Shown here one piece after another: positions 26,321-64,000 of a stretch of 64,000 bases of DNA (positions within the stretch are counted from its first letter, which is position 1; each line of letters begins with the position of its first letter). Made by a program: the position numbers and the translations under genes. The stretch spans positions 7,025-71,024 of the forward strand of contig JBDRQF010000011.1 in NCBI GenBank assembly GCA_043826435.1, in the 5' to 3' direction. The stretch is from Elusimicrobiota bacterium (GTDB taxonomy: Bacteria > Elusimicrobiota > Endomicrobiia > CG1-02-37-114 > JAHJSO01). The notes beneath the pieces were generated by a model. The model did not search any database and was not told where the DNA came from. It was given only the letters and a program-made list of their open reading frames with translations.

Positions 26321-27811
26321 TCAATCGGATTGTTTTTTAAAATTAAACACGAATAATATTTTTATAAATAAATAGAGTAAATTTATACCGAGAGAAGCGA
26401 GATAGAATAATTCCTTTAGGTTAATAAACCATCTGTCTGAGAGTAGGAACCATCCTACCGGGCCTTCTTTTTCAAGTAGTAAACGGATTACCCTTTTCGG
26501 CCTCAGCGAGAAAAAGAGATTTATTTTGAGCACGTCGTTCACCAGTTCTTTTTCCGTAGTTGTCCGCGGGACATAAGACAGCCGTGAACTTTTGAAGGGT
26601 GATTCCACCAGTGAACCGCAGGCATTGAGATTCTCCCAGTTTTTACCGGTATTCAGCCGGTTTTCTCTTTTTGCAATCTCATAGAGTTCCGTGCCGGGAT
26701 AGGGCGTGGCGTTGTTGAACCTGACATAATTCAGGTCCAGTTGTTTTGCAAGTTTATATGACTGCCATCTTTCTTCTTTCGTTTCAGTCGGCAGTCCTAA
26801 AATAAATGTAGCCGAGACCTGGAATCCGAATTTTTTTACCAGTTTAACCGCTTGTATGTTTTTCTCTACCGTCTCTCCCTTGTTTATCAATTTCATCAAC
26901 CGTTCGGAGGCAGTTTCTATGCCGAAATTAATCGTCCTGAAACCGGCCATTTTCAAATATTCAAGGATTTCCGGATTGATAGAATCGCCTCGCGTTTGAC
27001 AATCAAATTTCGCTTTCAGGTAAAACTTATTTTTGTGCATCAACGTGCATAATTTTTTTGTTCTGTTTTTGTTTACTGTGAAATCATCGTCAACGAACAA
27101 TATATATTTTTGTTTATATTTGTTTATCAACAAATCAAGCAGTTCAATTACTTTTTCAGGATTTATATAGCGATATGTTCTGCCGGAAATACATCTTTGA
27201 CTGCAGAAAATACAATTGTACGGACACCCCCTGGATGTGGCTATAAACCCAAAATTATATTTACCCAGATGTTTTTCAAACAGATGGTAAGGAAATGGTG
27301 GCAGGGAATCCATTGCGGGCAATCTGGCGTCCGGGTTGTGGATTAAGTTACCATGCCTGTCGTTGAATGAAATCCCCTGTATTTTTGAGTAGTCCTCTTT
27401 TCTTTTTATTGACTCATATAGCAAATTAAGGGTTTCTTCCCCTTCCCTTCTGACTACTATATCTACATAACCGGTTTTAAGCGCCTCTTCCGATAATACG
27501 GTCGGGTGTATTCCCCCCAGTATAATCTTTGAATCAGGATATTTTTCCTTTAGCATTTTTGCAAGTTCATATGCTCTGGAAATACCGGCAGTAAGGCATG
27601 AAATACCGAATATGTATGGAGCGACGGTGTCTCTTGAATATTCATCTATAAGTCCGGAATTAATTGGCGTAATGTTTTCATCTATTATTCCGACCTTTCT
27701 GTTCTGGCTGATTAAATATCCTGCCAGGGAGCCGAGACCGATGGGCACATACATCGGGACATACCGCGCAAACTTACCTAATTTTTGAACCTGAGGGTTT
27801 ATCAGAATCAT
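26321..27811 (-). CDS. B12-binding radical SAM protein (class B radical SAM, methyltransferase-like)
   Basis: N-terminal cobalamin-binding domain (...ILGGIHPT...) followed by SRGCPYNCIFCSQ (a CxxxCxxC radical SAM cluster). 496 aa. Confidence 0.85.
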   Translation of the reverse strand: MILINPQVQKLGKFARYVPMYVPIGLGSLAGYLISQNRKVGIIDENITPINSGLIDEYSRDTVAPYIFGISCLTAGISRAYELAKMLKEKYPDSKIILGGIHPTVLSEEALKTGYVDIVVRREGEETLNLLYESIKRKEDYSKIQGISFNDRHGNLIHNPDARLPAMDSLPPFPYHLFEKHLGKYNFGFIATSRGCPYNCIFCSQRCISGRTYRYINPEKVIELLDLLINKYKQKYILFVDDDFTVNKNRTKKLCTLMHKNKFYLKAKFDCQTRGDSINPEILEYLKMAGFRTINFGIETASERLMKLINKGETVEKNIQAVKLVKKFGFQVSATFILGLPTETKEERWQSYKLAKQLDLNYVRFNNATPYPGTELYEIAKRENRLNTGKNWENLNACGSLVESPFKSSRLSYVPRTTTEKELVNDVLKINLFFSLRPKRVIRLLLEKEGPVGWFLLSDRWFINLKELFYLASLGINLLYLFIKILFVFNFKKQSD

Positions 27812-27826
27812 TTATTTATCCGCCGT

Positions 27827-28378
27827 TTAGCCGCCCGGGTCTAATTTTAAAAAATCCTTCAGGAATTTGGACATCACCGCTATGTAATGCCCCTTTTTTG
27901 TATTCTTATATCGCCCGTTTTCTATGACAATACAATTTGATTCAAGTATGTGATGCAGCCGTCTTTTAAAAACATCATCAGGCGGGTATTTGTGTTTCAT
28001 TTCCTCGTAAGAAAGTTTTTTTGCGGGAGATGTTTCAAATTCAATCATCATCCTGCCGGTAATGGTGCGGTCAATGAAAAAATAAAACTGGCAGTAGCCA
28101 ATGAATAAAAAGACATACAGGATGTACCCCGTTATAAAATTAAGTATTTTTGAAACAGACAAAACAACTCTGGAAGTCAAAAGCAGGTCGGCGGGTATTA
28201 GCATAAGGATGTTTACCGGGATTAGAATGTATGCTAATACATAGCCGAGCGTGAACGCATAAAAGGTGATTTTTATTGTTCTGAATCTCTCTTTTATATT
28301 GAATAGATGGAAAATAATTATGTGTATTATAAAAAACAGAATAAAACATAAAAAGCCAATAATTAATCCTTTTAACAT
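27827..28378 (-). CDS. Small membrane protein with C-terminal winged-helix-like domain (paralog A)
   Basis: 183 aa with three N-terminal hydrophobic helices, then a charged cytoplasmic domain (SYEEMKHKYPPDDVFKRRLHHILESNCIVIENGRYKNTKKG). About 45% identical to the adjacent gene. Confidence 0.6.
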   Translation of the reverse strand: MLKGLIIGFLCFILFFIIHIIIFHLFNIKERFRTIKITFYAFTLGYVLAYILIPVNILMLIPADLLLTSRVVLSVSKILNFITGYILYVFLFIGYCQFYFFIDRTITGRMMIEFETSPAKKLSYEEMKHKYPPDDVFKRRLHHILESNCIVIENGRYKNTKKGHYIAVMSKFLKDFLKLDPGG

Positions 28379-28390
28379 GTTTTTTGCTCT

Positions 28391-28945
28391 TTAACCGCCG
28401 GGCCAGACATTCAGAATTTTCTTTGATATTCCGAACAAATTTGCTAAACAGCGTCCCTTTGTCGTATTTCTGTAGTAGCCCGCCTCTTCAACGATGCATC
28501 CGGATTCAACCATGTGTCTGAAGCGTCTTCTATAAATCTCGTCGGGCGAATAGACATTTTTCAGTTCTTCAAAAGAGACGCGTTTTTCCGGATGTCTTTC
28601 CAGTTCAACCATTACTCTGAGAGAGAGAGAACGATCAATTATAAAATAAAACTCGCCGTAAGACATAAAAAGAAAAACATACAGCATAAAACCGGTTACA
28701 AAGTTGAGAACTTTTGATATGGCCAGGACTGTTTCGGATGTCTGCATCGGGTCGGCGGGTATTAGCATAAGGATATCCCCGGAAATTAAAGTATAAAGGA
28801 CGATATAAAGAGGGATGAGTGAAAGGAAAATATTTCTTATTACCCTGAACCTTTTTTCAAATGGACCCCGATAGTGGAATACAATGGAGTGCAATATAAG
28901 GAACAACATGAAACAAAAAAAACCTATCAGGAGTCCTTTTAGCAT
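28391..28945 (-). CDS. Small membrane protein with C-terminal winged-helix-like domain (paralog B)
   Basis: 184 aa, same architecture as paralog A (MLKGLLIGFFCF..., ...SFEELKNVYSPDEIYRRRFRHMVESGCIVEEAGYYRNTTKG). A tandem duplicate. Confidence 0.6.
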   Translation of the reverse strand: MLKGLLIGFFCFMLFLILHSIVFHYRGPFEKRFRVIRNIFLSLIPLYIVLYTLISGDILMLIPADPMQTSETVLAISKVLNFVTGFMLYVFLFMSYGEFYFIIDRSLSLRVMVELERHPEKRVSFEELKNVYSPDEIYRRRFRHMVESGCIVEEAGYYRNTTKGRCLANLFGISKKILNVWPGG

Positions 28946-28961
28946 TGTTTTAACCCGGGCA

Positions 28962-30494
28962 TTACTTCATAAAACTCTGAATTAATTTTATCATGTCAGA
29001 GGGTTGTATGGTTTCTTTATTGCCTAAATACTGTACCGCGAGGGATCCTGCGCAGTTGCCTACAAAGGCAACTATTTCCGGATGGACATTTAAATAGGTT
29101 AAGGGGGATGTAAGAGCCAGGACGGCGTCCCCTGCACCGATCGTGTCAACGATTTTCCATGCCAATGCGGGGACCCTGTATAAACTTCCTTTACTGTAAT
29201 ATAAAGAGCCTTCATGTCCCAGTGTTGTATTTATTTTGGGGCATTTGAGTTGTAGGGCGATTTTTTTAACCATATCTTCTAAATTGCCGTGCTGGTCATG
29301 GCATGCCAGACGGATTTCTTCGTGGTCTAAAACAACATAGTCAGCCCTCGAGTATTTGGTTATCAGATTATATCCTAAATTTGCACTATTGGATTGAGCC
29401 ATCACCACCAGGTAAGGAGAGTTGTTGCAGAGAATATTAACAATTCCATTTGTTATGAACCCATGTCCGAAATCAGCGGAAATTACCATGTCATATCCGC
29501 CCACCATTTTGTTGAATAATTTTATTACATCCTTTTCAAGTTCAGGGTTTATGGGCTGTTCATTTAGAGAGCATATTTCAAACATTTTTTGATTAAAGAC
29601 GCGTTCAAGGAAGCGGGATTTTATTATTGTGGATCCATCATCGCGATAACATGGAAATAATTTTATATTTTTTTTCAGACGCGTCCTGATAAAATATTCC
29701 TTGGTATTTTGTTTACCTAACAGCCCTATAAGACCCACTTCCTTTACAAATCCCGCGATGTGATTTGCCACACACAGGGCGCCACCCGGGTATGTCTCCC
29801 TATGAGTAAATTTTGATGAAACAACCGTTGATTTTGATGCCCGCTGAAACAGATGACAAAAATTATATTCATCAATGATGGGTTCTCCTATGATTAACAC
29901 TTTAAGTTTTTTTAACCCTTCAATTGCATCCAAAACATCCTCAAGGGTGAACTTCTGCGTAAAACCAGAAAGGAAGTGTTTTATTTTGTCAGGCAGGATG
30001 TCAAAATGGTCTTTAAGGAGTTTTGTTGAGGAGAATATCTCTTCGTCCGTAAAAATAAGTTTCCCGCCGATTGATTTGACCACGGATGCTTCCCGGTCAA
30101 GTCGCCCGGTTGCATCGCTTTTTACCGATTCAAAATCGCTACCTTTGACATATAAATCGGGCCTGATGGTTTTCAATGTTTCTTCGGCAGTGGGCCATTG
30201 ATTTATAGCGACATAATCCGCGCAGTCAAGAGCAGCGATTGAGTCCGCCCTTTGTTTTTCGTTAAAGACAGGTCTGCCCGGCCCTCTCTTTATATAACAG
30301 TCGGGCGTGATGGTTACAACCAGAACGTCCCCCATCTTTTTTGCCGCCTGCAGATGTTTAATATGGCCGAAATGCATTAAATCAAAACAGCCGTGGCAAA
30401 GGACAATTTTTTTGCCCTGTTTTTTGATTTTAGTTATTATTTTAGAAAGGGTATTTAAATCTTTGATTTTGGTTGACGGTTCTATTTTGCTCAC
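28962..30494 (-). CDS. Bifunctional sugar-phosphate nucleotidyltransferase (RfaE-domain-II/cytidylyltransferase-like) / PfkB-family sugar kinase, HldE-like with reversed domain order
   Basis: N-terminus: IVLCHGCFDLMHFGHIKHLQAAKKMGDVLVVTITPD (HxGH nucleotidyltransferase, RfaE domain II type). C-terminus: PfkB signature DTIGAGDAVLA. 510 aa. Confidence 0.8.
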   Translation of the reverse strand: MSKIEPSTKIKDLNTLSKIITKIKKQGKKIVLCHGCFDLMHFGHIKHLQAAKKMGDVLVVTITPDCYIKRGPGRPVFNEKQRADSIAALDCADYVAINQWPTAEETLKTIRPDLYVKGSDFESVKSDATGRLDREASVVKSIGGKLIFTDEEIFSSTKLLKDHFDILPDKIKHFLSGFTQKFTLEDVLDAIEGLKKLKVLIIGEPIIDEYNFCHLFQRASKSTVVSSKFTHRETYPGGALCVANHIAGFVKEVGLIGLLGKQNTKEYFIRTRLKKNIKLFPCYRDDGSTIIKSRFLERVFNQKMFEICSLNEQPINPELEKDVIKLFNKMVGGYDMVISADFGHGFITNGIVNILCNNSPYLVVMAQSNSANLGYNLITKYSRADYVVLDHEEIRLACHDQHGNLEDMVKKIALQLKCPKINTTLGHEGSLYYSKGSLYRVPALAWKIVDTIGAGDAVLALTSPLTYLNVHPEIVAFVGNCAGSLAVQYLGNKETIQPSDMIKLIQSFMK

Positions 30495-30539: not shown

Positions 30540-31643
30540 TCAAATAAAATTTATATGTATTGGGGGTTCACCTTTTGGTTTTTCCAAGGTGGTATTTCCG
30601 TGTTTTAAGTCCCACAAAAACTCATTTACCTTATGTTGAAGGCAAAGAGTCCCACACATTGTTTTAGCATCAAAATTATCTAAAGCAATAAAATTCATAA
30701 CCTCCCAATAGCGTTCGCTGCGCCATATCTCTTTAAAAGATTTATCTACAATGTTACCAATGTGATATCTTTTATACTTTCTGTTGAACAACATACCACA
30801 AGGAGCAACAAGTCCTGAACCAGAGAATTGGGTAATAAAAGGTGGGCCATAACATTGGGAATATTTACGTTTCCCTTCACTCAAGATTTTTGACCATTTC
30901 ACTTTCACTAAGTAGCCCTCATCAGAATATCCTTCCGCTTCTTTTAAAACATTAACCAATTCAAAATATTTAGAGTAATTTACTCCTAAACTACCTTTTT
31001 CATCATCACTGCAATGCTTAATGATTGAATAATCAACTCCCAGTTCCTTGCCAAGTTTAGCAAAAGGTATAATCTGGCCGACAAATTGAGGGAGTAAAAC
31101 CATCTGTAAACCCAAAGTAACAGAAAGATTTTTTTCTTTTTTTATTCTTACCGCTTCTTTTATAGTGTTAAGTACTTTATAAAAATGTTCTTCCTTGCAT
31201 CCCATTATTTGAGAATAACGGAGTGGCTCCGCAGCAGAAATATTAAATCTAAGATATGTTAAACAAGGCAAAATTTCTTCTAATTTTTCATCTTTTAATA
31301 AATAGCCGTTTGTTCCCAATGCCATATCCAGTCCATTTGCTTTGCCTCTTAATATCGCATCATATAAATGTGGCGAACAAGTGCTTTCGCCGTCACTGAC
31401 AAAACTTATTGCTTTCACACCAATTTCAGTAGCATCGTCAAGGAATCTGAAAATTACATCTTTTGTCATTCTCTTTTCGTCGTTTGTTTGTAGTTGGCCA
31501 TAGCAATAAATACATCTGTAGGTGCACCTTCTGGTCAGTGAACAATCTATGGTTATAGGAGCAATTCTTTCGCCTCTAAGCCATGCCTCTATTCTATCTG
31601 TATGCCAGAGCATTTTATGACCATCTAAGATTAATTCGTCCAT
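30540..31643 (-). CDS. Radical SAM domain protein (no B12 domain), sugar-modifying candidate
   Basis: CSLTRRCTYRCIYCYG CxxxCxxC motif near the N-terminus, plus C-terminal extra cysteines (possible auxiliary cluster). 367 aa. Confidence 0.8.
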   Translation of the reverse strand: MDELILDGHKMLWHTDRIEAWLRGERIAPITIDCSLTRRCTYRCIYCYGQLQTNDEKRMTKDVIFRFLDDATEIGVKAISFVSDGESTCSPHLYDAILRGKANGLDMALGTNGYLLKDEKLEEILPCLTYLRFNISAAEPLRYSQIMGCKEEHFYKVLNTIKEAVRIKKEKNLSVTLGLQMVLLPQFVGQIIPFAKLGKELGVDYSIIKHCSDDEKGSLGVNYSKYFELVNVLKEAEGYSDEGYLVKVKWSKILSEGKRKYSQCYGPPFITQFSGSGLVAPCGMLFNRKYKRYHIGNIVDKSFKEIWRSERYWEVMNFIALDNFDAKTMCGTLCLQHKVNEFLWDLKHGNTTLEKPKGEPPIHINFI

Positions 31644-31649
31644 ATGTAT

Positions 31650-32429
31650 TTATCCTTTATTTAATGCTTGATAACGCTTTGCCGAGACGGAGTCAGGATT
31701 AATAGTTTGTCTTTCTTTCTTAAAATAAATGTGTGTAAACAATAGAAAAAATCCCTTTATTACTTTATAAAAAGAATGAAAGGACAATGCTTTTGACTTA
31801 CCCTCCTTTCTTAGTTTTAATCTGTAAGGAACTTCTGCAAAAAGATATTTTCTCTTGATTAATCTTATCAAGATATCAGTTTGATAAAAAAAACCGCTAT
31901 TCCTATGTTCCATCTCACTTAATAATGATTTTCTGTAAAGAACAGTTCCATTAGTATAGTTTAGCGAGACAAAAAAGGTATTATTTATAACAAGTTTATA
32001 AACAAACGAAATAAAGTTTCTAAAAAAAGAACGTGTCCCTTTATTAAAAACAAAAGGAATAACTATATCAACATTTTCTAGAAGGTAAATATAACGAAAA
32101 ATTTCTCCGGGCTCATTTTCATTATCCCCCGGTAACATACAAACTATATTTCCTTTTGCATTATCTACTCCATCCCAGAAAGAAGCGCCAAGTCCTTTTG
32201 GTTTGTTATGGTTAATCATTCTAACTTTTTCAGGATTTTCTTCCATTTTGCGTTGTATAATATTAGGAGTTGTATCAGAACTCCCGTCATTAATTACAAC
32301 TATTTCGCCTTTTATCCCAAACTCCCCAAACGCAGATAGAGTATCATCAATAGATGAGGAAATATTTTTTTCTTCATTGAGCGCGGGCATTATAATAGTT
32401 AAAAATATGCTATCGGTTTTATTCGCCAT
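31650..32429 (-). CDS. Glycosyltransferase family 2 (DPM-synthase-like)
   Basis: LTIIMPALNEEKNI...IVVINDGSSDTT DXD-region GT-A signature. 259 aa. Confidence 0.8.
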   Translation of the reverse strand: MANKTDSIFLTIIMPALNEEKNISSSIDDTLSAFGEFGIKGEIVVINDGSSDTTPNIIQRKMEENPEKVRMINHNKPKGLGASFWDGVDNAKGNIVCMLPGDNENEPGEIFRYIYLLENVDIVIPFVFNKGTRSFFRNFISFVYKLVINNTFFVSLNYTNGTVLYRKSLLSEMEHRNSGFFYQTDILIRLIKRKYLFAEVPYRLKLRKEGKSKALSFHSFYKVIKGFFLLFTHIYFKKERQTINPDSVSAKRYQALNKG

Positions 32430-32435: not shown

Positions 32436-33485
32436 TTATTTTTTTAAAAGTTTTTTTATTTCAAAAACTATATTTTCAACATTTGGATAATAAATTTTTT
32501 CTAAAACAGAACTCGCGGGTGTAGGAATATCGGGCAGTGCTATTCTTGATACAGGTGCTTTTAGAAATTTCAGAGCATTTTCCATCAAAAATGAAGAAAT
32601 TTCAGAACTAATTCCGCAAAATTTATAACCAAAATCTAAAACAATCGCCCTTTGCGTTTTTTTAACTGAACTTAGAATTAAATCATAATCAAGAGGCTTT
32701 ATTGTTCGCAAATCTACGATTTCAATATTTATCCCTTCGTCCTCAAGTCTTTTTGCTGCTTCTATTGCTAAGATTGTCATAAATGAATTGGTGATTAAAG
32801 TTAGATCTTTTCCCTCTTTTCTTAATACAGCTTTTCCTAAGGGTATTAAGTAAGGATCCTTTGGGACTATATCCTTATAGTCATAAAGCCATCGGTGTTC
32901 AATAAAAATTACAGGTGACTCATCCAGAATGCTTGACAGTAGCAATCCTTTTACATCATAAGCAGTGGAAGGCATAACGACTTTAAGTCCGGGGACATGG
33001 GTAAATAAAGATTGAAGAGGTTGAGAATGTTGTGCAGCAGACCCCCAGCCACCACCTATTATTGCCCTTACTACAATGGGAACAGATGCTTTCCCACCAA
33101 ACATATATTTCCACTTTGCAGCATGGTTTATTAACTGGTCCATTGATAATAGCATGAAGTCAGTCCTCATGTGAACCAAGACGGGTCTCAACCCTGCCAG
33201 AGAAGACCCAATAGCAATTCCTGTTAAAGTATTTTCACATAAGGGCGTATCAAACACCCTATCACTGCCAAATTCTTTATGAAGATTTAAAGTTGTTCCA
33301 AAAGTTCCGCCGGGGTCATCAACTCCTTCTCCAAATATAAAAACCCTCTTATCTTCTTTTAATGCTAGATACAATGCTTCTTTAATAGCTTCCCTGTAAC
33401 TGATTTCCCTCTCTTTTTTAGACCCTGTTTTCCGAGTGGAAATTTTTATTTTAGATAAATCTATTGGTGCTTTATCCCAGGACAT
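32436..33485 (-). CDS. TPP-dependent 2-oxoacid dehydrogenase E1 beta subunit / transketolase C-terminal-like
   Basis: 349 aa with the ...FGEGVDDPGGTFGTT...FDTPLCENT... motif typical of PDH/acetoin-DH E1-beta. Paired with an E1-alpha just upstream. Confidence 0.85.
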   Translation of the reverse strand: MSWDKAPIDLSKIKISTRKTGSKKEREISYREAIKEALYLALKEDKRVFIFGEGVDDPGGTFGTTLNLHKEFGSDRVFDTPLCENTLTGIAIGSSLAGLRPVLVHMRTDFMLLSMDQLINHAAKWKYMFGGKASVPIVVRAIIGGGWGSAAQHSQPLQSLFTHVPGLKVVMPSTAYDVKGLLLSSILDESPVIFIEHRWLYDYKDIVPKDPYLIPLGKAVLRKEGKDLTLITNSFMTILAIEAAKRLEDEGINIEIVDLRTIKPLDYDLILSSVKKTQRAIVLDFGYKFCGISSEISSFLMENALKFLKAPVSRIALPDIPTPASSVLEKIYYPNVENIVFEIKKLLKK

Positions 33486-33487: not shown

Positions 33488-34447
33488 TCAGTAAACATCC
33501 TTATATAGATCTTTTTCTTGAGGATAAGGGCTTTTCAGAGCAAAATCCAGCGCTTCCTCTATCTCTTTTTCTACTTCTCCGTCTATCTGTTTAAGGTCTT
33601 TTTCTTTAAGTAGATTATTTTCCAGGATATATCTTTTGAATTTTTCCAGGGGGCATTTCTTTGTCCATTTTTCAACTTCTTCTTTTTGTCTGAATCCTTT
33701 CTCTACATCTGTTTCAGGACCAACATGAGTTCTCCATCTATATGTTCTTGTTTCAATCAAAGAAGGACCTGAACCATTTCGTGTTCTCGCTATAAATTTT
33801 TTGGCTGTTTTGTGTACCTCAAATACATCATTTCCGTCAATGCAAATACCTGGCATGGAGAAAAAATCCGCTATCTTATAAATGTCAGTATTCACCTGTC
33901 TAACTTTTTGAAGAGAGTTTGTTGCATAAAAATTATTTTCACATACAAATATTATAGGCAACTTCTTTAACGAAGAAAAATTAAGAGATTCATAAAAAAC
34001 ACCTTCATCAACTGCCCCATCGCCAAAAAATGCTATAACAATTCTATTATCTTTCTTTATTTTAGAAGCCAATGCCGATCCAACTGCAATAGGTATTCCC
34101 CCGCCCACAATTGCAGAAGTTCCCAATATAGAATGTTTAACAGATATCATATGCATTGAACCACCTTTTCCGGACGAACAGCCAGTTTTTTTTCCATAAA
34201 GTTCTGCGAATAAAGGTTTTAAATCCACACCTTTGGCAATTAAATGACCGTGGTTTCTATGATTACTGAAGACATAATCTTCTTTTTTTAAGTTGATGCA
34301 AAAACCCACAGCAATAGCTTCTTGACCTATATATAAGTGAACAGGGGTGCACATATCCTGTTTTGGGTAAATTTGAATTATCTTCTCTTCAAATTTTCTA
34401 ATTTTTGTAAGGTAGTAATAAATTTTTTTTAATGTATCAGATGTCAT
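33488..34447 (-). CDS. TPP-dependent E1 alpha subunit (thiamine diphosphate-binding)
   Basis: GDGAVDEGVFYESLNFSSLKKLPIIFVCENNFYA TPP-binding GDG...N motif. 319 aa. Confidence 0.85.
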   Translation of the reverse strand: MTSDTLKKIYYYLTKIRKFEEKIIQIYPKQDMCTPVHLYIGQEAIAVGFCINLKKEDYVFSNHRNHGHLIAKGVDLKPLFAELYGKKTGCSSGKGGSMHMISVKHSILGTSAIVGGGIPIAVGSALASKIKKDNRIVIAFFGDGAVDEGVFYESLNFSSLKKLPIIFVCENNFYATNSLQKVRQVNTDIYKIADFFSMPGICIDGNDVFEVHKTAKKFIARTRNGSGPSLIETRTYRWRTHVGPETDVEKGFRQKEEVEKWTKKCPLEKFKRYILENNLLKEKDLKQIDGEVEKEIEEALDFALKSPYPQEKDLYKDVY

Positions 34448-34467: not shown

Positions 34468-35583
34468 CTAACCGGAAAAATCAAGATAAAATTTTCTTAT
34501 TTTATCAACGATATAGTCCAGTTGTTTTTCTGTCAATTCAGGATAAACGGGCAAACTTAAAATCTCTCCCGCCAGACGTTCGGTTACGGGAAAAGCGCCT
34601 TTTTTATATCCTAACGGTTTAGCCGCCCTCTGCATATGTATGGGCAGCGGATAGTGGATTTTTGTTTCAATCCCGTTTTTTGCAAGGTAGGTTTGAAGCC
34701 GGCCCCTCTTTTCTGCCCGGATTATAAAAGTATGGTAAACACATTTTTCATGGCTGTTTTCTTCCGGTGTTTTTACGAATCCATTCATGTCAGATAAATT
34801 TTTTATATAGTATTTTGCAACCTTTCTTCTGCCTTCAATCCATCTGTCCAGATATTTAAACTTAACATTGAGTATTGCCGCCTGCATAGTATCAAGCCGG
34901 CTGTTATACCCCCACTGCGGAGATTCATTTCTGTTTTTTAATCCGATGTTTCTGAGTCGGATTAATTTTTGGTATAGTTTTTTATCGCCTGTCGTGATGA
35001 AACCCCCGTCACCGCAGGCATTCAGTGTTTTTAATGGATGTAAACTGAAACAGCCGAATGTCCCGAATGAACCCACTCTCTTTCCTCTGTATTCTGCGCC
35101 GAGTGACTGTGCAGCATCTTCAATAATATACAGGTTGTATTTTTTTGCTGTTTCCATAATCGGGTGCATGTCCGCTGTCTTTCCTGTTAAATGCACCAGA
35201 AGGATTGCTTTTGTTTTCCGGGTGATTTTTTCAGATATAAGGTCCGGGTCAATATTCATATCTTCCCGGACATCTACAAAAACCGGCTTTAGCCCTGCTG
35301 TGATTATGCTTGAGGTTGTAGAGAGAAAGGAGTTTGGGACCGTAATAACCTCATCGTCATCTTTTAACCCTAACGATTTCATCGCAAGAAAGAGTGCATC
35401 AGTTCCTGAGTTGACCCCGACAGCGTATTTTGTATCGCAGTAGTGCGCCGCCCTTTGTTCAAACAGCGAGACCTCTTTGCCGAGAATAAAGTCGGCCCTT
35501 TCAAGGGTTTTTGAAACCGCCGCGAGTATCTCTCTTTTCAGTTTTTTATGCTGGGCTTTCAGGTTTATGTAAGGTATTTTCAT
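34468..35583 (-). CDS. DegT/DnrJ/EryC1/StrS family PLP-dependent sugar aminotransferase (copy 1)
   Basis: 371 aa aspartate-aminotransferase-fold family. FSLHPLKTLNACGDGGFITT contains the conserved lysine region. The ...GVNSGTDALFLA... N-terminus is typical. Confidence 0.85.
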   Translation of the reverse strand: MKIPYINLKAQHKKLKREILAAVSKTLERADFILGKEVSLFEQRAAHYCDTKYAVGVNSGTDALFLAMKSLGLKDDDEVITVPNSFLSTTSSIITAGLKPVFVDVREDMNIDPDLISEKITRKTKAILLVHLTGKTADMHPIMETAKKYNLYIIEDAAQSLGAEYRGKRVGSFGTFGCFSLHPLKTLNACGDGGFITTGDKKLYQKLIRLRNIGLKNRNESPQWGYNSRLDTMQAAILNVKFKYLDRWIEGRRKVAKYYIKNLSDMNGFVKTPEENSHEKCVYHTFIIRAEKRGRLQTYLAKNGIETKIHYPLPIHMQRAAKPLGYKKGAFPVTERLAGEILSLPVYPELTEKQLDYIVDKIRKFYLDFSG

Positions 35584-46641: not shown

Positions 46642-46802
46642 TCTTGTCAATCAAGACTGTCGGGCTACCCCGTCCGGCCACCCCGTCGCCGACACTACCC
46701 ACAATTTGCTTATTTTAGCAAATTATCCGTGTAATTGCAAATTTCAAGGGGCATGCGGGCAGGATTTGGATGTTACCGGCTTTAATACAGGGGTTCTTAT
46801 AT

Positions 46803-53070: not shown

Positions 53071-53975
53071 CGTTTAACCGTCCTCAGAATTTCTTCTGCC
53101 CGGTGGTCATAGGTGTGTTTTAAAACAACTTCTCTATGTCCTGTCAGAGCAATCTCCTCTCGTTCTGTTTCGTGTTTCAGGTAATAGTCAATTTTTTCCA
53201 ACAGGTCATTCCCATTATCATATAAAACCAGATGTTTTTTATCTTGGAAAAGTTCTTCCAGTCCTGCTTCCAGTTTTAACCGGTCAGTGATAAGTAAACT
53301 TCCACAAGAAAGCGCTTCGAAAACACGCATATTCAAATCACCCCTTATACTTTTATTGAAAACTATCTTTGCTTGACTATATATTTTAGCCATATCTTCA
53401 CCGAATATTCCTGGAAATACTTGGATATTAAATTTCTGACCAATCAATTTTAACAATGTAACTCTCTCTGGATAAACCATAGGATTGGTGTTACCTACAA
53501 ATACAACATCATAAATTTTGGGCAATTCATATTTTCTATGTATTTCGTGGTCACATGCAACTGGCAACCATTGACTACTATTCCCAAATTTGCACATATA
53601 GTTTTTATGGCAGGAGAAAACATAAGAAAAATCGTTTTTTAAATAGGTGTGAAATTTTATTTTATCTGGTTCATGGGTATCTAATGACCATAATATCGCA
53701 GGGATACTAAGTTTGTTGAATCCTATTAGATGATATTGGCCAGCGGAATCAACTTCAACAATAATGTCAAACGATTTTTTCATTTTTTTTATCACCGATT
53801 GAACATAAACAGGAAGACCTTTAGGAATAAAAAATGGTAGATGGTTGTATAAATTAGTCCAGTATGGCGTTTTACCCAAATCAAAACTTTCCACAAAATG
53901 TTTTTTTCTTAATGCTTTTTCTAAATACATTCCAGTTGTCCAGGGAATTTTATTATATGCCAGAAATATGTTCAT
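53067..53975 (-). CDS. CgeB-like / GT-B C-terminal-domain glycosyltransferase candidate
   Basis: 302 aa. The C-terminal region (VFVGN...ERV..L...G..VFPG..., FEALSCGSLLITD) resembles the CgeB/GT1 C-terminal domain. Confidence 0.45.
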   Translation of the reverse strand: MNIFLAYNKIPWTTGMYLEKALRKKHFVESFDLGKTPYWTNLYNHLPFFIPKGLPVYVQSVIKKMKKSFDIIVEVDSAGQYHLIGFNKLSIPAILWSLDTHEPDKIKFHTYLKNDFSYVFSCHKNYMCKFGNSSQWLPVACDHEIHRKYELPKIYDVVFVGNTNPMVYPERVTLLKLIGQKFNIQVFPGIFGEDMAKIYSQAKIVFNKSIRGDLNMRVFEALSCGSLLITDRLKLEAGLEELFQDKKHLVLYDNGNDLLEKIDYYLKHETEREEIALTGHREVVLKHTYDHRAEEILRTVKR

Positions 53976-55543: not shown

Positions 55544-55605
55544 CATATATCCATTTATCTTTTTTCGCAAAAAATTACCTCGTTAATCTATTTTGTCAGG
55601 GTGGT

Positions 55606-56358
55606 TTAATCCTGATCACAACCTTGTTTAGAAGCAACTGTAATAAAAACACTTCCGTACATGAAAGAAATTGCTCGTTTATCAATTAAAGCAATAAACC
55701 TTTTTACAAAATCCTTAATTTTATTACCAGTAAGAGGAATTTTAGGAACTAATTTGCAAAATTCTACTTTAAGCCCACTTTCAGTAAGAATTCCTTTCAT
55801 CTTTTCCTCATCAAACGATGCTAAATGTTCTGAAGGAGGAAAAACAGCATAACAATCCGGACAGACAACTTTTTGAATATTTTCTTTATAGGGAACAGTA
55901 ATTATAACTTTCCCCAACGGCTTTAGAACTCTTTTTATTTCTTTAAGCCCTTTTTCAAGAGTGTCCGGCAAAAGATGTTCTAATACCTCAGTCACAAACA
56001 CATAATCAAAAAAACATGTCACAAGCGGCAAATTTGTTATACTCCCCTCTTTAAGAATAATATTTTTATTTAAAGAACTAAATTTTTCTTTTAGACTTTT
56101 TATATTTTGGCGAGAAACATCACATCCATAGACTTCAAATCCTATATTATAAAGTTCATCCATAAGTGTCCCTATTCCACATCCTATATCAAGGGCCTTT
56201 CCAGGCAACCTAAAAAACTTTTTTACATTTTTAATAACACATTTATAAAAATCTGCTGGCAAAAACATACCTTCAGAGAGTTCCGGCAATGTTTCATACA
56301 TTTCCCATAAACTTTTTATTTTTTCTTCGGCCCATTCTACTTCGTGAATTTTTTTCAT
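55606..56358 (-). CDS. Class I SAM-dependent methyltransferase
   Basis: ALDIGCGIGTLMDEL (motif I) and DYVFVTEVLEHL. C-terminal CPDC suggests a small Zn-ribbon-like insertion. Confidence 0.8.
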   Translation of the reverse strand: MKKIHEVEWAEEKIKSLWEMYETLPELSEGMFLPADFYKCVIKNVKKFFRLPGKALDIGCGIGTLMDELYNIGFEVYGCDVSRQNIKSLKEKFSSLNKNIILKEGSITNLPLVTCFFDYVFVTEVLEHLLPDTLEKGLKEIKRVLKPLGKVIITVPYKENIQKVVCPDCYAVFPPSEHLASFDEEKMKGILTESGLKVEFCKLVPKIPLTGNKIKDFVKRFIALIDKRAISFMYGSVFITVASKQGCDQD

Positions 56359-56385: not shown

Positions 56386-56526
56386 TTAAAACTTTATGAG
56401 ATGCCTGTTTTCAAGGACGGCTGCGAGATATAACAGCCCGAGCGGAGGCAGGTAAGAGCCGACTTTTGTAAGCCCACCGTACCTCTCTTCCCCTAACATA
56501 GGCGGAAAAACCAGAAGTATTTTCAT
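56386..56526 (-). pseudogene. Remnant N-terminal fragment (46 aa) of a B12-binding radical SAM gene
   Basis: Minus-strand translation MKILLVFPPMLGEERYGGLTKVGSYLPPLGLLYLAAVLENRHLIKF* matches the conserved N-terminus of the B12-rSAM paralogs (MKKILLVRPP...PLGILYIAGVL). The fragment is GC-richer than its flanks. Confidence 0.6.
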
Positions 56527-59571: not shown

Positions 59572-61191
59572 CTAAATTTTGCTCAATGTCTTGCTTATGT
59601 CATATATTTTTATTTCGTCATTTTCAAATATCTGCACATCGGGGCTGTTATGTTCTTCCCAGTAGAGCGGTTTGATTTTCCCCGTTCCGAGCGGCACTCT
59701 AAAAACCGGTTCGGATTCGCGGACGATTTCAGTTATCAGGGAATTCAGCGGTATCCTGTTGTACGTATTAACGTGTAAATATTTGACATACAGCATATAC
59801 CGTACATTTTGTTTCCTGTAGAGGGCAAGTAATTCGTCTTTTGATTTTATGTAACTCACATCTATTGTGTTTTCCTTACCGGCAAAAAATTCAGAATTGG
59901 GATAACAAAAACTGATATGTTTCGGGCAGCCGCTTTTAATGATGTATTCAACAGCGGACTTATAGCCGGATTTTATTCCGAGTATCTTAAGGGACTTGTA
60001 AATCCCGGGTGCAGTTATGACAACGAGGGCTGCTGCCAGTTTTACAAGAAAGCTGACCGAAGGGAAAAAACTCAGCAATACCATGACGCCCGTGGACGAT
60101 ATTATGGACATTGAATAGATGGAAGACGAAATAAGGCGGGGCAGGGCGTAGGCATAGGTACCTGTACCGTCGTCCATTGCCAGCGCCTTTTCACGCGATA
60201 TGTCGGGCCTCCCGCTCCAGAATAAAAGAGGGATAAAAAACTGACTGAGCAGGACACCTCCCTCAAAGGATATGTTTTTTAACAGGAGGACGGCGCCCAG
60301 AAAGACAAGCAGGATGGTGAGCGGGCCGTCGAACGCATAGATGGTTTTGAGGTACATCCTTAAAAACGGGAGGCGGGCCGTCGGTAAAACGAAATTCCCC
60401 GACCTAAAAAAGAGTTGTCTGAAGAAGGTCGGGTAAGGGTAACCGATTTCCTTTAGGATGACGAAGAATTCCTCAATGATAATCAGGGGCAATGCCATTG
60501 CCGTGAAGAGCAGTATAAACCGCGAAACCACAATGTCTGCGGGGAATTTAAATAACACCGCTGCCACGATTTCCCACCCGGCAAAGAAAACAGGCAGGTA
60601 GAATTGCCGCGTGTTACAACAGAATGCAGCGCCGACGAAAATGCCGGCGATTATCAGGTAAATGAAATTACCGGTTTTACAACTCATTAAGTAAAGATAG
60701 GTCGCCCATACATAAAATGCCCCGCATGTTATTTCTGCATGTACCGACCTTGAATACACAAGGTGATAACCTGAAACCGTTAGGATTAAGGCGGAGATAA
60801 TGGCGAACAAAGGGCCGAAAATGATTTTACCGGTAAAATATACGCCAAGGATTCCGATTATGCCGAAGAAAGCGTTGGCATATAGGGCAGAGTATTCCAC
60901 ATTGCGGACGACTTTTGAAGTGAGGTAATAAATGAATATGTTAAGCGGGTTCGTGTCAAACAAATAACGCCCGCGGAAACCGGCAGCCGCCTGCCCGAGG
61001 CCAATCTTCTTTTTTGAAAGCAACGGCCTGATGTTCTTTTTGATAAACGTCATTAGGTCGTCAAGGAACGCCACTTCAAGCATCCGGAGCCCGTCGTCAA
61101 AATGAAGGAGCCCCCTCTGTTTGAGAGCATAAAACCTTAGGAAGGCGCCGAGTAGCAGAACAAAAATAACCAGAATCCACGTTAATGCCAT
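59572..61191 (-). CDS. Polytopic membrane protein, GT-C-like glycosyltransferase candidate
   Basis: 539 aa with at least 11 TM helices. Acidic N-terminal loop (HFDDGLRMLEVAFLDD) and a C-terminal hydrophilic domain. Confidence 0.5.
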   Translation of the reverse strand: MALTWILVIFVLLLGAFLRFYALKQRGLLHFDDGLRMLEVAFLDDLMTFIKKNIRPLLSKKKIGLGQAAAGFRGRYLFDTNPLNIFIYYLTSKVVRNVEYSALYANAFFGIIGILGVYFTGKIIFGPLFAIISALILTVSGYHLVYSRSVHAEITCGAFYVWATYLYLMSCKTGNFIYLIIAGIFVGAAFCCNTRQFYLPVFFAGWEIVAAVLFKFPADIVVSRFILLFTAMALPLIIIEEFFVILKEIGYPYPTFFRQLFFRSGNFVLPTARLPFLRMYLKTIYAFDGPLTILLVFLGAVLLLKNISFEGGVLLSQFFIPLLFWSGRPDISREKALAMDDGTGTYAYALPRLISSSIYSMSIISSTGVMVLLSFFPSVSFLVKLAAALVVITAPGIYKSLKILGIKSGYKSAVEYIIKSGCPKHISFCYPNSEFFAGKENTIDVSYIKSKDELLALYRKQNVRYMLYVKYLHVNTYNRIPLNSLITEIVRESEPVFRVPLGTGKIKPLYWEEHNSPDVQIFENDEIKIYDISKTLSKI

Positions 61192-61259
61192 TTCTTATAT
61201 GTGCTCCTTTTCGTATGCTATCCCGCTACGGTTAAGTGTCCACAACTTTGTTTTTGGGT

Positions 61260-62681
61260 TCATCCTTTCGCCTCTGTTTTTTGTTTCATTATTATTTTTT
61301 TAATAAGAAGGAAGTCATCAATTGTTAATAGTCTGAGTGATATAATATATACGGCAAATACAGGGATGGACACGCTTAAATGGGACAGAAGCCCGGTTAT
61401 TATACTTAAGGATAAACCAAGTAAAAGTAGCAGGTTTGTTTTTATGAGAGGTATCTTATATTTTGATATTACTATGGTTATTATTATTGTCTGGATTGTT
61501 AAACCGGCAATCGCGCTGATGGCGGGACCTGTGGATTTAAACGCCGGTATCAGCCAGAAGTTTAATGAAGTGGAAATGATGAAATAGATAAAACCCGCGG
61601 CTATAACCAGGAACGGCCTGTTTATCGAGTAGAAAAATGGGCCGAAGAACGCCTGGAGCCCGAACAAAAAAAGAGTAAATGAATATATTTGAGTAACCTT
61701 TATACTTTCAGCATAAACATTGGTGAACAGTAGGGGAATTATTTTATCGGCGAAACTGAAGATCACAAGGGATATAAAACCGAATGCAATGCCGAGCGTC
61801 TTGCTGCCGAATTGGACGATTTTTTCCTTTGTTTCTACGGTGTCGGGATGTGAAAAATAATACAGGAACGGGACAGGGAGAGATGCGAGCGATAATGATT
61901 CTATTAACTGGGGGACTCTCAGTCCGGCAGAGTAATAACCGACATCAACCGGGTTTTTTAACAGAACCCTTAGCATCACATAGTGCAGTGTTGTTAATAA
62001 GATAAATAATATTTGTCCGACAAACATTGCGAGTCCGAAATTGAATATGTCTTTCCTGATATTCAGGTTGGTGAAGCCAAGATTTTTCCTTATGAATACA
62101 AAATTTATTGCTATAAAGAACAACATTACGAAAAACATGTTGTATATGACGGTTTTAAAACTGTTTGATATAAGGACGATAATTATTATTGAGATGGCCC
62201 GCCAGAAAAATTCATAAGCGCCCTCCAGTATGGACCATTTCAGGAATTTGCCCAGTCCGCGGTAAACCCCCTGGAATATGTTTATAAAAGCATAAAGCAG
62301 TATAAGAAACAGGAATATATTTTTAATTTCCCTGATTTCAATCGGGTACAATTTTGGGAACTTATTTATGCTGAATACAAAAAACAGCGAGAATAGGAGG
62401 AAAGCGATAAAGGTTATTTCAAATGACTGGGAACAAAGATTTTTTTTCTCGTTTTGATTGTTTATTTCGGGCAGGAATCTTGAAAGCGTGCCGGAAAAGC
62501 CGAAACTCAATAACAACCCGATGGTTACTATCAGCTGGGTTACAAGTGAAAATCTGCCATATTCGTCCGGCCCAAGGAGCCGTACCACAAAAATAGACAG
62601 AAATCCGGACAATACCTGAAAAAATATCTTCAATACAAAATATTTTGAACTGGAATGAAATATTTCGGAGTATTTTGACAT
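61260..62681 (-). CDS. Wzx-like oligosaccharide flippase (MOP superfamily, polysaccharide biosynthesis protein family)
   Basis: 473 aa with about 12-14 TM helices. The N-terminus VLKIFFQVLSGFLSIFVVRLLGPDEYGRFSL is typical of PST/Wzx-family exporters. Confidence 0.7.
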   Translation of the reverse strand: MSKYSEIFHSSSKYFVLKIFFQVLSGFLSIFVVRLLGPDEYGRFSLVTQLIVTIGLLLSFGFSGTLSRFLPEINNQNEKKNLCSQSFEITFIAFLLFSLFFVFSINKFPKLYPIEIREIKNIFLFLILLYAFINIFQGVYRGLGKFLKWSILEGAYEFFWRAISIIIIVLISNSFKTVIYNMFFVMLFFIAINFVFIRKNLGFTNLNIRKDIFNFGLAMFVGQILFILLTTLHYVMLRVLLKNPVDVGYYSAGLRVPQLIESLSLASLPVPFLYYFSHPDTVETKEKIVQFGSKTLGIAFGFISLVIFSFADKIIPLLFTNVYAESIKVTQIYSFTLFLFGLQAFFGPFFYSINRPFLVIAAGFIYFIISTSLNFWLIPAFKSTGPAISAIAGLTIQTIIITIVISKYKIPLIKTNLLLLLGLSLSIITGLLSHLSVSIPVFAVYIISLRLLTIDDFLLIKKIIMKQKTEAKG

Positions 62682-64000
62682 TACTTGTTATAGGGGACTT
62701 TTTTTATTAACGGTGACACCAGTTGTTTCTGCCTGCCGACAAACTTTATTAAACGGCTCAAACCCGCCGCCAACCCGTATAGGTTTAATCTGATAAAAAT
62801 CCTGAACAAGTTTCCCAACAGTTTATTCGCTATTTTTTCAAGACGTTCTCTCCCGCCTAAAAAATTCTTAAAACTTTTTGCATCTAGCCAGGTTGCGACA
62901 TAAGCCATTTCTTTTACAAACTCAAATTTTTTGCTGTCGTCCTGCAGCCATGGATAAAGTTTTGATTCCCACGCCTCATAATCAAATTTGACCCAGTCCT
63001 CCATTTTTTCAGGGGGCTTAAATCCATACTGTTTCGCAACCTCAAACAATTCCATCCCGGGATACAGGGTGACCATCATCAATTGTGTTATGTAGGCGGA
63101 CGGATTGTCTTCAAGCAGCCGGTTAATCAGTTTAATTGTTAATTTCACGTCCTCTATGGTTTCCGTCGGGAACCCTGCCATGAAGCCGAACCTTGCCGTG
63201 ATTCCGACTTCCCTCAATTTTTTATTTACTTCAATCACCTGTTCCACCGTTATGTCTTTTTTTATGTCATTTAGTATCTTTGCCGAGCCGGACTCTACCC
63301 CGATGTATATTTCAACAAAACCGGCTCTCTTAAGCAGTTTCAGGTAATCCATGGAAAAACAATAAAGGTAATTCGCCCTGCAGCCACTGGTAAGTTTTAT
63401 TGAAATGTTTTTTTCGATGATAAGCCCACATATTTCCGTCGCACGGTCAAAATCGGCAAAAAAATTGTCATCCAGTAACTGGATCGTTGATATTTCCGGG
63501 TTTTTGACTAAATATTCAATGTGGGGCAAAACAGATTTCGGTTCTATTGCCCGGTGTTTCCTGAAATTAAACGCAACGTTGTAGCAGAAACCGCACCTGT
63601 GCGGGCAACCTCTGCTGGTAAAAATTGGGAACAGTCCGTTAATTATATAATCGTTGACGTTTATCAGACCATAATTCGGTATTGGAGATTTATTGAGATT
63701 TGCAAACCCGCAGGGCTGATTTACAATAATTTTGCCTTTTTCCCTGTATCCAATCCCCTTCATCTTTTTGATGGCTTCAGGGTTGCCCAGGTTTTTAAGC
63801 AATTCAACGAACGTTTCTTCACCGTCGCCGATAACAACGTAATCCACAAATTCATTTTGCAGCGTGTCGTCGGGCATCAGGGAAGGGTGTACACCCCCTA
63901 AAATGACAGGAATGGCACTGTCAATAGTTTTTATGAATTTCGCTACTTCAAGGGCGGATTTAATCTGATAACCGCTCATGGCGCTCAGCCCCACGGCGTA
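62681..64000 (-). CDS. B12-binding radical SAM protein (copy 4; N-terminus runs off the window)
   Basis: ...PVILGGVHPSL... cobalamin-domain motif and TSRGCPHRCGFCYN. The frame is open through position 64000. Confidence 0.8.
   Translation of the reverse strand, partial: YAVGLSAMSGYQIKSALEVAKFIKTIDSAIPVILGGVHPSLMPDDTLQNEFVDYVVIGDGEETFVELLKNLGNPEAIKKMKGIGYREKGKIIVNQPCGFANLNKSPIPNYGLINVNDYIINGLFPIFTSRGCPHRCGFCYNVAFNFRKHRAIEPKSVLPHIEYLVKNPEISTIQLLDDNFFADFDRATEICGLIIEKNISIKLTSGCRANYLYCFSMDYLKLLKRAGFVEIYIGVESGSAKILNDIKKDITVEQVIEVNKKLREVGITARFGFMAGFPTETIEDVKLTIKLINRLLEDNPSAYITQLMMVTLYPGMELFEVAKQYGFKPPEKMEDWVKFDYEAWESKLYPWLQDDSKKFEFVKEMAYVATWLDAKSFKNFLGGRERLEKIANKLLGNLFRIFIRLNLYGLAAGLSRLIKFVGRQKQLVSPLIKKVPYNK

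Follow-up and report, generated by a model that had tools for sequence, protein, structure and literature searches.

A Bacterial Envelope-Glycan Locus with Four B12-Binding Radical SAM Genes Coupled to GT-C Membrane Transferases

Introduction

What might several cobalamin-type radical enzymes do in a gene cluster that assembles a bacterial surface glycan? This question is raised by a 64,000-nucleotide stretch of DNA from an Elusimicrobiota bacterium (assembly GCA_043826435.1, contig JBDRQF010000011.1, positions 7,025 to 71,024), referred to below as the window. Four of its genes, here named A, B, C, and D and all located on the minus strand, encode proteins that combine a B12-binding domain with a radical S-adenosylmethionine (SAM) core (B12-rSAMs), and a fifth gene encodes a radical SAM/SPASM-type enzyme. 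Few enzyme groups with mostly unassigned functions are as large as the class B radical SAM enzymes, and the database label of the window proteins is an ordinary one ("B12-binding domain-containing radical SAM protein").

In our assessment, the chances are about even that A–D and the SPASM enzyme are functional and tailor sugars by radical SAM chemistry during envelope-glycan assembly; the B12-rSAMs would most likely be C-methylases, and A and B would act on lipid-linked sugars. What is plainly observed is that B12-rSAM genes are systematically coupled to GT-C-type membrane glycosyltransferases, both in the window and in related loci of other phyla.

Results

Four B12-rSAM Genes in One Glycan Locus

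A preliminary description of the window, made from its letters alone, had reported four genes with an N-terminal B12-binding domain and a CxxxCxxC radical SAM core, and Pfam and motif searches bear this out. They are A (26321–27811, 496 amino acids; PF02310 E-value 4e-17, PF04055 E-value 1e-30), B (44522–45958, 478 amino acids; B12-binding 9e-16, Radical_SAM 3e-26), C (53972–55546, 524 amino acids; 2e-18 and 2e-20), and D (62681 to beyond 64000; 2e-15 and 6e-25). PF02310 scores range from 56.9 to 67 bits (cut-off 32.1) and PF04055 scores from 74 to 108 bits, and each protein has a single CxxxCxxC motif plus a GGxH[PA][ST] motif. The coordinates given earlier hold for A, B, D, and the SPASM gene, but the ATG start of C lies at 55546 rather than 55543, which is backed by a 100% identical database protein of 524 amino acids (P0121). 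Divergence of the paralogs, estimated by eye at about 25–35% identity, was measured at 27–31% (BLASTP E-values 1e-31 to 1e-45).

In A, the B12-binding domain covers residues 21–129 and the radical SAM core residues 192–354, with cluster cysteines (Cys) C196/C200/C203; the CxxxCxxC motif is invariant among 32 A-family sequences. Hydropathy analysis and an AlphaFold2 model place a hydrophobic helix at the C-terminus of A (residues 465–495), and B has a hydrophobic C-terminal region by hydropathy (408–443). The 5' end of D lies beyond the window edge, so that the 3' 439 codons are inside it; a 99% identical metagenome contig (L096; locus numbers of this form denote the related loci) supplies the approximately 68 missing N-terminal residues, giving a full length of about 507 amino acids. 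Compared with the window, the copy of D on this contig (339–1866; JGI contig Ga0180009_10034493) is frameshifted near codon 100, owing either to an assembly error or to disruption of the allele. Start and stop codons of A–D overlap or abut those of neighboring genes, suggesting co-translation. Sequences identical or 99% identical to A and C are annotated as belonging to Elusimicrobia/Elusimicrobiota metagenome-assembled genomes (MAGs), and they recur on contigs of several metagenome assemblies.

All four genes are located in one unbroken envelope-glycan locus, which runs from 11.6 kb to the window end (>52 kb) on a single strand: every open reading frame (ORF) of at least 100 amino acids in this range is on the minus strand. 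The sugar-tailoring setting proposed earlier is thus a true glycan locus. It includes a WecA/MraY-type initiating transferase, a Wzx-like flippase, GT4 enzymes, three DegT aminotransferases, two SDR epimerase/dehydratases, a WbpB/E/D-like trio of oxidoreductase, aminotransferase, and acetyltransferase, an AsnB-type amidotransferase, and four class I methyltransferases; one membrane protein has a weak, sub-cutoff Wzy_C match (27.8 vs. 31.7 bits). The glycan may be an O-antigen, an S-layer glycan, or an exopolysaccharide. Seven PMT_2-type GT-C membrane proteins (PMT_2 or PMT Pfam matches) and six small GT2 glycosyltransferases of about 230–270 amino acids are also present. The top matches of these GT2s are polyprenyl-phosphate sugar synthases (AglJ, ArnC, PgfS, PpgS, and dolichyl-phosphate hexose transferase), all below the equivalog cut-offs. 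For one glycan cluster, the seven GT-Cs and six GT2s (15234–61191) make an unusually high count of putative polyprenyl-phosphate-monosaccharide modules.

Family Placement and Predicted Fold

By their sequences, A–D are placed among class-B-type radical SAM enzymes, and A is so placed by its predicted fold as well. The AlphaFold2 model of A, built from 32 homologs, has a predicted local distance difference test (pLDDT) score of 87.2 and a predicted template modeling (pTM) score of 0.86. Its top Foldseek matches are OxsB, MgmA, AprD4, TsrM, CysS, and TokK, and it superposes over its length on OxsB, MgmA, TsrM, CysS, and TokK. For A, the one protein of the four that was modeled, the cobalamin-binding fold on which the class B proposal depended was therefore recovered in prediction, as a Rossmann domain followed by a barrel. 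To our knowledge AprD4 has the same fold and does not use cobalamin, so the fold alone is no proof of cobalamin use. An affiliation with oxygen-independent coproporphyrinogen oxidase, which had been named as a finding that would speak against class B, was not seen: HemN (1olt) matched A only with an E-value of 8e-5 over 116 residues, and the HemW and HemZ models scored 20–34 bits with the window proteins, far below the class B models.

None of the five radical SAM proteins reached a curated NCBIfam cut-off (HpnJ, BchE, Sden_1168, PhpK, AprD4, and others). HpnJ (TIGR03471) scored 184.9, 136.3, 190.4, and 127.1 bits with A, B, C, and D (cut-off 577.6), and is the first or second NCBIfam score of each. 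BchE (TIGR02026) scored 184.4, 113.7, 120.6, and 140.9 bits, respectively (cut-off 481.35). C gave the best scores with Sden_1168 (NF038361, 205.4 bits vs. 575) and PhpK (TIGR04479, 123.9 vs. 600), D reached a sub-threshold 121 bits with the ladderane enzyme model, and the MgmA family scored 116 bits against a cut-off of 360. The window contains neither hopanoid genes (hpnH, hpnG, hpnI, hpnK, shc) nor bacteriochlorophyll genes. A reading of C as a phosphonate P-methyltransferase was rejected, with 205 bits against 575 and no phosphoenolpyruvate mutase, phosphonopyruvate decarboxylase, or other phosphonate gene in the window.

In a PDB search, the closest solved protein by sequence for A and D is MgmA (9CCB, identified via PMC11796369), and the best match of B and C is AprD4; OxsB, TokK, and CysS come next. 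The nearest named families (HpnJ, BchE, Sden_1168, and the ladderane enzyme) are a mixture of methylases and non-methylases. It has been noted that the function of uncharacterized class B members is hard to predict given their low identity (PMC9204698).

This placement bears directly on the main alternative, in which the enzymes would have the same position in the pathway but a non-methylating chemistry, such as ring contraction to a carbocycle (HpnJ, OxsB), 1,2-diol dehydration or deoxygenation (AprD4), epimerization, oxidation, or C–C bond formation. We consider this possible, though on the unlikely side. HpnJ and BchE give A, B, and D their top sub-threshold scores, and D also scores with the ladderane enzyme; these three families group together as non-methylases, in a main cluster that also contains the methylases Fom3, MoeK5, GenK, and Fms7 (PMC9204698). 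The best PDB match of B and C is a sugar diol dehydratase, and the locus already has four class I methyltransferases. However, the majority of annotated class B enzymes are methylases (PMC9204698), the AprD4 match of B and C is limited to the radical SAM core, and scores to the AprD4 family (NF033070; 51–89 bits vs. 500) are below those to HpnJ, BchE, and Sden_1168. The B12-binding Pfam domain is also well above its cut-off in all four proteins (57–67 vs. 32 bits), whereas some of the non-methylating reactions would not need cobalamin. C-methylation of sugars is the reaction that we favor.

Coupling to GT2 and GT-C Genes

A gene for a polytopic membrane protein comes directly after A, B, and D in each case, with stop and start codons abutting or overlapping. 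Downstream of A and B this is a GT-C: a 7-transmembrane (TM) GT-C-like protein after A (24766–26316, minus strand; PMT_2 26.2 vs. 26.1 bits), separated by a 4-nt gap, and a PMT_2 GT-C with nine TM helices after B (43257–44516, minus strand). The stop of D overlaps the start of a Wzx-like flippase gene (61260–62681, minus strand), which is followed by a PMT_2 GT-C (59572–61191, minus strand). Directly upstream of B is a small GT2 of 229 amino acids (45961–46650, minus strand; best matches AglJ, ArnC, and dolichyl-phosphate hexose transferase, sub-threshold), so that B, whose GC content at third codon positions (GC3) is native-like, stands in a GT2-rSAM-PMT_2 triad.

We then analyzed the neighbors of B12-rSAM genes in 88 related loci from other genomes. 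A downstream same-strand neighbor with at least six TM helices was found for 49 of 122 B12-rSAMs versus 84 of 933 other genes, that is, 4–5 times more often (odds ratio 6.8; Fisher P-value = 6e-17, which overstates the support, the loci being phylogenetically non-independent). For A homologs alone, polytopic neighbors occur downstream in 35 of 80 cases and upstream in 9 of 73. In addition, 35 of the 88 loci carry 2–4 B12-rSAM genes within about 20 kb, so the clustering of these genes is not due to chance. Triads of a GtrB/ArnC-like GT2, A, and a large polytopic protein were detected in five loci (L016, L020, L054, L076, L085), the first of which is the closest GTDB ortholog of A (65% identity); in L016, L020, and L054, the downstream protein passes the Pfam cut-off for YfhO.

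The A Cassette

The distribution of the A family was analyzed by a scan of GTDB species representatives, which yielded 80 loci, all from MAGs or single-cell assemblies; their gene content was determined by de novo ORF clustering. The family as a whole has more than 1,600 homologs at 55–74% identity. The loci come from Elusimicrobia, many Omnitrophota, anammox Planctomycetes (Scalindua, Brocadiales), Nitrospirota/Nitrospinota, Desulfobacterota, Latescibacterota, Leptospirales, and others. A recurrent cassette was observed in these organisms (e.g., L023, L029, L037, L048, L059, L074, L078, L083, L094), consisting of an HldE-like gene with swapped domains, a SIS (GmhA-like) gene, two radical SAM/SPASM genes, E1 alpha and beta or a split transketolase, a small GT2, A, and two small membrane proteins. 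Frequent companions are GT9, DegT, a B-like B12-rSAM, and a large GT-C (YfhO-like, DUF2079-like, or PMT_2).

The window version, from 35583 down to 24766 on the minus strand, has no SIS gene and no second SPASM gene. It is headed by a DegT-type sugar aminotransferase (34468–35583), which is followed by E1 alpha (33488–34447) and E1 beta (32436–33485) of a thiamine pyrophosphate-dependent pair, a small GT2 of the polyprenyl-phosphate sugar synthase type (31650–32429; best matches ArnC, PgfS, and AglJ, sub-threshold), the SPASM enzyme, an HldE-like bifunctional enzyme (28962–30494), the two small membrane proteins (27827–28945), A, and the GT-C-like gene. The small GT2 was found in 26 of the 80 A-family loci and the E1 pair in 14–15, with a split transketolase in its place elsewhere. 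The known function of such E1 alpha/beta pairs in sugar clusters is the addition of a pyruvate-derived two-carbon branch to a nucleoside diphosphate (NDP)-keto-sugar (PMC4802897). The HldE-like enzyme has the cytidylyl/adenylyltransferase domain at its N-terminus and the PfkB kinase at its C-terminus; it scores 151 bits against an HldE cut-off of 521, is conserved at up to 67% identity in homologous cassettes (67% in L007), and is often located beside the SIS isomerase. The SIS, HldE-like, and GT9 genes point to heptose-type chemistry, and the cassette product is probably a branched or extended amino sugar, judging from its gene content.

The SPASM enzyme (30540–31643, minus strand, 367 amino acids; Radical_SAM E-value 2e-16, SPASM 5e-8; PF13186 33.7 bits vs. 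21.5) had been described as a radical SAM protein with extra C-terminal cysteines. Comparison of 36 homologs confirmed this: besides the radical SAM cysteines C40/C44/C47, residues C264, C282, C330, and C334 are invariant. These four suggest one auxiliary cluster (twitch-like) and not the classical two with a seven-cysteine motif. Its best NCBIfam model is a tungsten-cofactor maturase (89.8 bits vs. 380), and a PDB sequence search returned only PqqE (E-value 3e-4). Its subfamily is 67–84% identical across phyla and thus more conserved than A; the window enzyme itself has matches in 30 of the 80 loci (median identity 69%). The second SPASM subfamily found in many cassettes is about 30% identical to it.

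The two small membrane genes (27827–28378 and 28391–28945, minus strand) are tandem paralogs, 50% identical, whose products of 183 and 184 amino acids contain 3–4 TM helices each and a winged-helix-like C-terminal domain ending in a conserved GxGG. No Pfam or NCBIfam match was found for either of them. A word-indexed homolog search gave three matches; the family comprises 622 cluster representatives (E-value ≤ 1e-3), of which the best 150 have 73–208 amino acids, most of them 160–200, none being of fusion length. Its weak matches are to HVO_A0261_N, HTH_45, and HemN_C, and a profile search against PDB gave marginal winged-helix matches only. The genes are located beside A homologs in about 19 of the 80 loci. 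One may speculate that these proteins serve as a flippase, a substrate adaptor, or an anchor of the radical SAM enzyme.

Could the substrate instead be something other than a sugar? The enzymes might modify a polyprenyl or membrane lipid (HpnP/HpnR, tetraether/ladderane-type) or a protein, for example the adjacent GT-C or an S-layer protein (MgmA, Mmp10). MgmA, the closest solved relative of A and D, is a protein glutamine C-methylase, the B12-rSAM genes are tightly coupled to polytopic membrane proteins and not to a particular sugar pathway, and the hydrophobic C-termini of A and B would also suit such a role. On the other hand, the MgmA score is far below its cut-off, genes for lipid biosynthesis or precursor peptides are absent from the locus, cytoplasmic glycosyltransferases are the partners of C-type genes, and the partners in the cassette are sugar enzymes (DegT, HldE-like, SIS, E1/transketolase, GT2, GT9). 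A non-sugar substrate thus appears quite improbable, and a sugar substrate is preferred.

Contexts of the B, C, and D Families

Other phyla likewise have their homologs of A, B, and C in glycan loci, and all of these homologs come from MAGs or metagenome contigs. B-like genes (34% identity) were found beside A homologs in Omnitrophota and Elusimicrobia (15 of 80 loci), and in L005 and L007 they adjoin both A homologs and YfhO/DUF2079 proteins. Many Omnitrophota (L005, L028, L031, L033, L073) share a block in the order A, YfhO-like, B-like, DUF2079-like. The block from A to the DUF2079-like gene directly follows housekeeping genes in Omnitrophota (an aminotransferase, panC, and an AspDH-like gene), and in L005 it is located near the replication origin, no more than about 10 kb from dnaA, dnaN, and parAB.

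The C family has more than 3,200 homologs. All sampled contexts are glycan loci (L013–L015, L098, L099, L100), in Nitrospirae, in a MAG labeled "Nanoarchaeota," and on Elusimicrobia-like contigs, and they often contain additional B12-rSAMs and a SPASM enzyme (L013–L015, L098). The Nitrospirae locus L098 (5448–14176) has three B12-rSAMs plus a SPASM enzyme. L099 (1–17512), the one labeled "Nanoarchaeota," has six B12-rSAMs in 17 kb, interleaved with PMT_2, small GT2, LPG_synthase_TM, DegT, and FemAB genes, and contains the same GT2-rSAM-PMT_2 triad that surrounds B; this contig and the window sequence stem from one and the same ENA sample. Close relatives of D are scarce in the collections scanned. 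A metagenome scan gave two loci, one of which (L097, 1–6556) has three tandem D-like genes beside AsnB-like and SDR genes. Overall, each B12-rSAM would represent a separate, widely distributed, uncharacterized subfamily that serves one module.

The class B interpretation of the preliminary description was therefore only partly supported: the assignment by sequence and the divergence of the paralogs stand, but the view that several such enzymes are uncommon in cell-surface glycan loci does not, since multi-rSAM glycan loci are recurrent, not rare, in these uncultivated anaerobic lineages.

A Relic and a Compositional Mosaic

The proposed degraded fifth copy at 56386–56526 (minus strand) is a genuine N-terminal stub of a C-type gene. 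Its 46 codons align from the first residue with residues 1 to about 40 of many C-type B12-rSAMs, with a best E-value of 9e-7 versus 0.09 or worse for 20 shuffled sequences. The relic, with a native-like GC3 of 0.51, is adjacent to a low-GC module (53067–56358, GC3 0.20–0.28) composed of a class I SAM methyltransferase (55606–56358, minus strand) upstream of C, C itself (GC3 0.20), and a Glyco_trans_1_2 glycosyltransferase (53067–53975, minus strand) that overlaps the stop of C and is thereby translationally coupled to it; the latter pair is conserved in L100. Because a module of low GC3 lies beside a relic of host-like composition, the simplest reading is that an imported module displaced the native C-type gene and left its 5' stub behind. 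The relic and the GC3 mosaic agree with the turnover of this family in the locus that had been suggested. The A cassette also has a low GC3 (0.23–0.43, versus 0.5–0.6 in the housekeeping genes and most of the locus), which suggests horizontal acquisition; the cassette of A and the SPASM enzyme has probably been acquired in this way.

Such a mosaic, with one family member reduced to a 46-codon stub, raises the further possibility that the genes are decaying passengers of a recombination-prone locus, or are colocalized without functional meaning. We regard this as highly improbable considering that three complete reading frames and one cut by the window edge are intact with all cluster cysteines kept, that identical or near-identical copies of A, C, and D are present in several independent metagenome assemblies, that synteny is kept across many phyla, and that gene boundaries are as tight as described above.

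Other Features of the Window

The first 11.5 kb of the window, before the glycan locus begins at 11.6 kb, contain housekeeping genes, including fab genes, plsX, ackA, ndk, rnc, and an isocitrate/isopropylmalate dehydrogenase-family gene. An ORF of 89 amino acids (52640–52909, minus strand) is located within the 424-nt gap between the glycosyltransferase at 53067–53975 and a methyltransferase at 51942–52643. Gene calling on an independent contig (L010) also reports this ORF, which may be what is left of a former gene.

Discussion

A Proposed Role in Glycan Assembly

Substrate, lipid-linked stage, cobalamin use, and methylation are all inferred here from domain content and synteny, as follows. 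NDP-sugar pathways would feed the small GT2s, which would load single sugars onto polyprenyl phosphate, and the GT-C membrane transferases would then attach the loaded sugars outside the cytoplasmic membrane. Because of their hydrophobic C-termini and their position beside GT2 and GT-C genes, A and B probably work at the membrane, where they would modify the polyprenyl-phosphate-linked sugar after the GT2 step and before flipping and the GT-C step. C lacks a hydrophobic tail, and its partners are a class I methyltransferase and a cytoplasmic glycosyltransferase, so that a soluble or nascent intermediate would be more likely as its substrate. C-methylation is taken as the likeliest reaction because it is the majority activity of the class (PMC9204698). 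In that case, one SAM would methylate Co(I) and a second would give a 5'-deoxyadenosyl radical; this radical would take a hydrogen atom from an unactivated sugar carbon, and the resulting substrate radical would accept the methyl group from methylcobalamin.

Modification of a lipid-linked sugar between loading and transfer is known from ArnD in the Arn pathway and from DprE1/2 in decaprenyl-phosphate-ribose metabolism. By analogy, A and B would be a radical counterpart of ArnD or DprE1/2. Among class B enzymes, GenK, GenD1, Fms7, MoeK5, and HpnJ have glycosides or lipid-linked sugars as substrates (PMC9204698).

Several observations weigh against this proposal. The best NCBIfam score among the five proteins is 205 bits against a cut-off of 575, the nearest sub-threshold families include the non-methylases HpnJ, BchE, and the ladderane enzyme, and B and C are closest to AprD4 among solved proteins. 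Rfam and tRNA scans found no cobalamin riboswitch, tRNA, or other RNA gene in the window, which also contains no B12 genes. C and D have no hydrophobic C-terminal segment by hydropathy, only 35 of the 80 A homologs pass a strict hydrophobic-tail test, and no more than 8 of 80 loci have the GT2-A-GT-C triad in its strict form; the neighbor enrichment has the inflated P-value mentioned above. No known flippase resembles the small membrane proteins, and the AlphaFold2 model of these proteins, from four sequences, is poor (pLDDT 61.5).

A broader version of the proposal is put forward only tentatively, and we regard it as doubtful: a pathway shared across phyla in which membrane-anchored cobalamin radical SAM enzymes, together with the pair of winged-helix membrane proteins, would carry out C–H functionalization on polyprenyl-phosphate sugars passing from a DPM1/GtrB-type synthase to a GT-C. 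The products could be C-methylated, ring-contracted, or branched sugars, and would be unprecedented in the envelopes of Elusimicrobiota, Omnitrophota, anammox bacteria, and other uncultured anaerobes.

If the proposed role is correct, it would extend the diversity of bacterial glycans by a new layer of chemistry, in which C-methyl, carbocyclic, or branched sugars are made on the lipid carrier. It would also help to explain the abundance of B12-rSAM genes, and a possible need for cobalamin, in many uncultured anaerobes, in which the recurrence of these loci points to unstudied radical chemistry on surface sugars. The A cassette of about ten genes and the GT2-rSAM-GT-C triads would be defined gene sets suited to heterologous reconstruction, and the glycan product should be experimentally reachable because the cassette is also present in anammox bacteria, which can be grown as enrichments.

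Comparison with Known Systems

Two published systems were considered and set aside. Glycan methylation has been reported for the S-layer of Kuenenia, but no radical SAM gene cluster was described (PMC5088730), so that this work gives no support. The radical SAM clusters beside nitrogenase paralogs in Elusimicrobia (bioRxiv 10.1101/765248) are a different system; the window has no nifHDK-like genes. Two recent reviews of cobalamin radical SAM enzymes (one of them PMC9204698) contain no member in cell-surface glycan assembly. Loci of this kind were also not found described in a literature search, subscription journals not being covered, that combined cobalamin radical SAM enzymes with lipopolysaccharide, O-antigen, polyprenyl, or GT-C.

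The closest parallel in architecture is provided by GenK, GenD1/GntE, Fms7, and MoeK5, which, like A–D, have an N-terminal B12-binding Rossmann domain and a CxxxCxxC radical SAM barrel and are encoded in sugar-rich clusters. These enzymes methylate unactivated sugar carbons (PMC9204698). They differ in belonging to actinomycete antibiotic pathways, where they act on soluble pseudo-oligosaccharides or on moenomycin, whereas A–D belong to an envelope-glycan locus and are coupled to GT-Cs. Furthermore, A–D have no family-level score to the named models, and A and B have hydrophobic C-termini.

HpnJ acts on glucosamine attached to a membrane lipid and is thus a precedent for radical chemistry on lipid-linked sugars (PMC9204698). 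However, it is a proposed ring-contractase, not a methylase, and the scores of A–D to it are only 127–190 bits against 577.6. AprD4 resembles A as a top Foldseek match with a B12-like N-terminal domain, and it acts on an amino sugar in apramycin biosynthesis; it differs in that the window proteins score only 51–89 bits with its family (cut-off 500) and in that its alignment with B and C is confined to the core. The E1 pair of the window resembles Plm8/Plm9 and AviB1/B2 in being located inside a sugar cluster, where it adjoins an aminotransferase. Some homologous cassettes have a split transketolase in place of the pair.

With regard to the glycosylation machinery, the logic of a small GT2 and a GT-C in GtrA/B/C, CsbB-GtcA-YfhO, ArnC-ArnD-ArnE/F-ArnT, and DprE1/2 plus Emb/Aft is the same as in the window, whose six GT2s and seven GT-Cs supply both components of a Gtr-, Arn-, or CsbB-YfhO-type module. 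The third component differs: Pfam and NCBIfam searches did not identify the two small membrane proteins as GtrA/GtcA- or ArnE/F (SMR)-type flippases, and with their winged-helix-like C-terminal domain they are unrelated to GtrA, GtcA, and ArnE/F. We know of no three-component polyprenyl-phosphate glycosylation system that uses a radical SAM enzyme as the modifying step. Compared with all of these systems, what is new here is the conserved cassette, the GT2-rSAM-GT-C arrangement, and the two partner membrane proteins.

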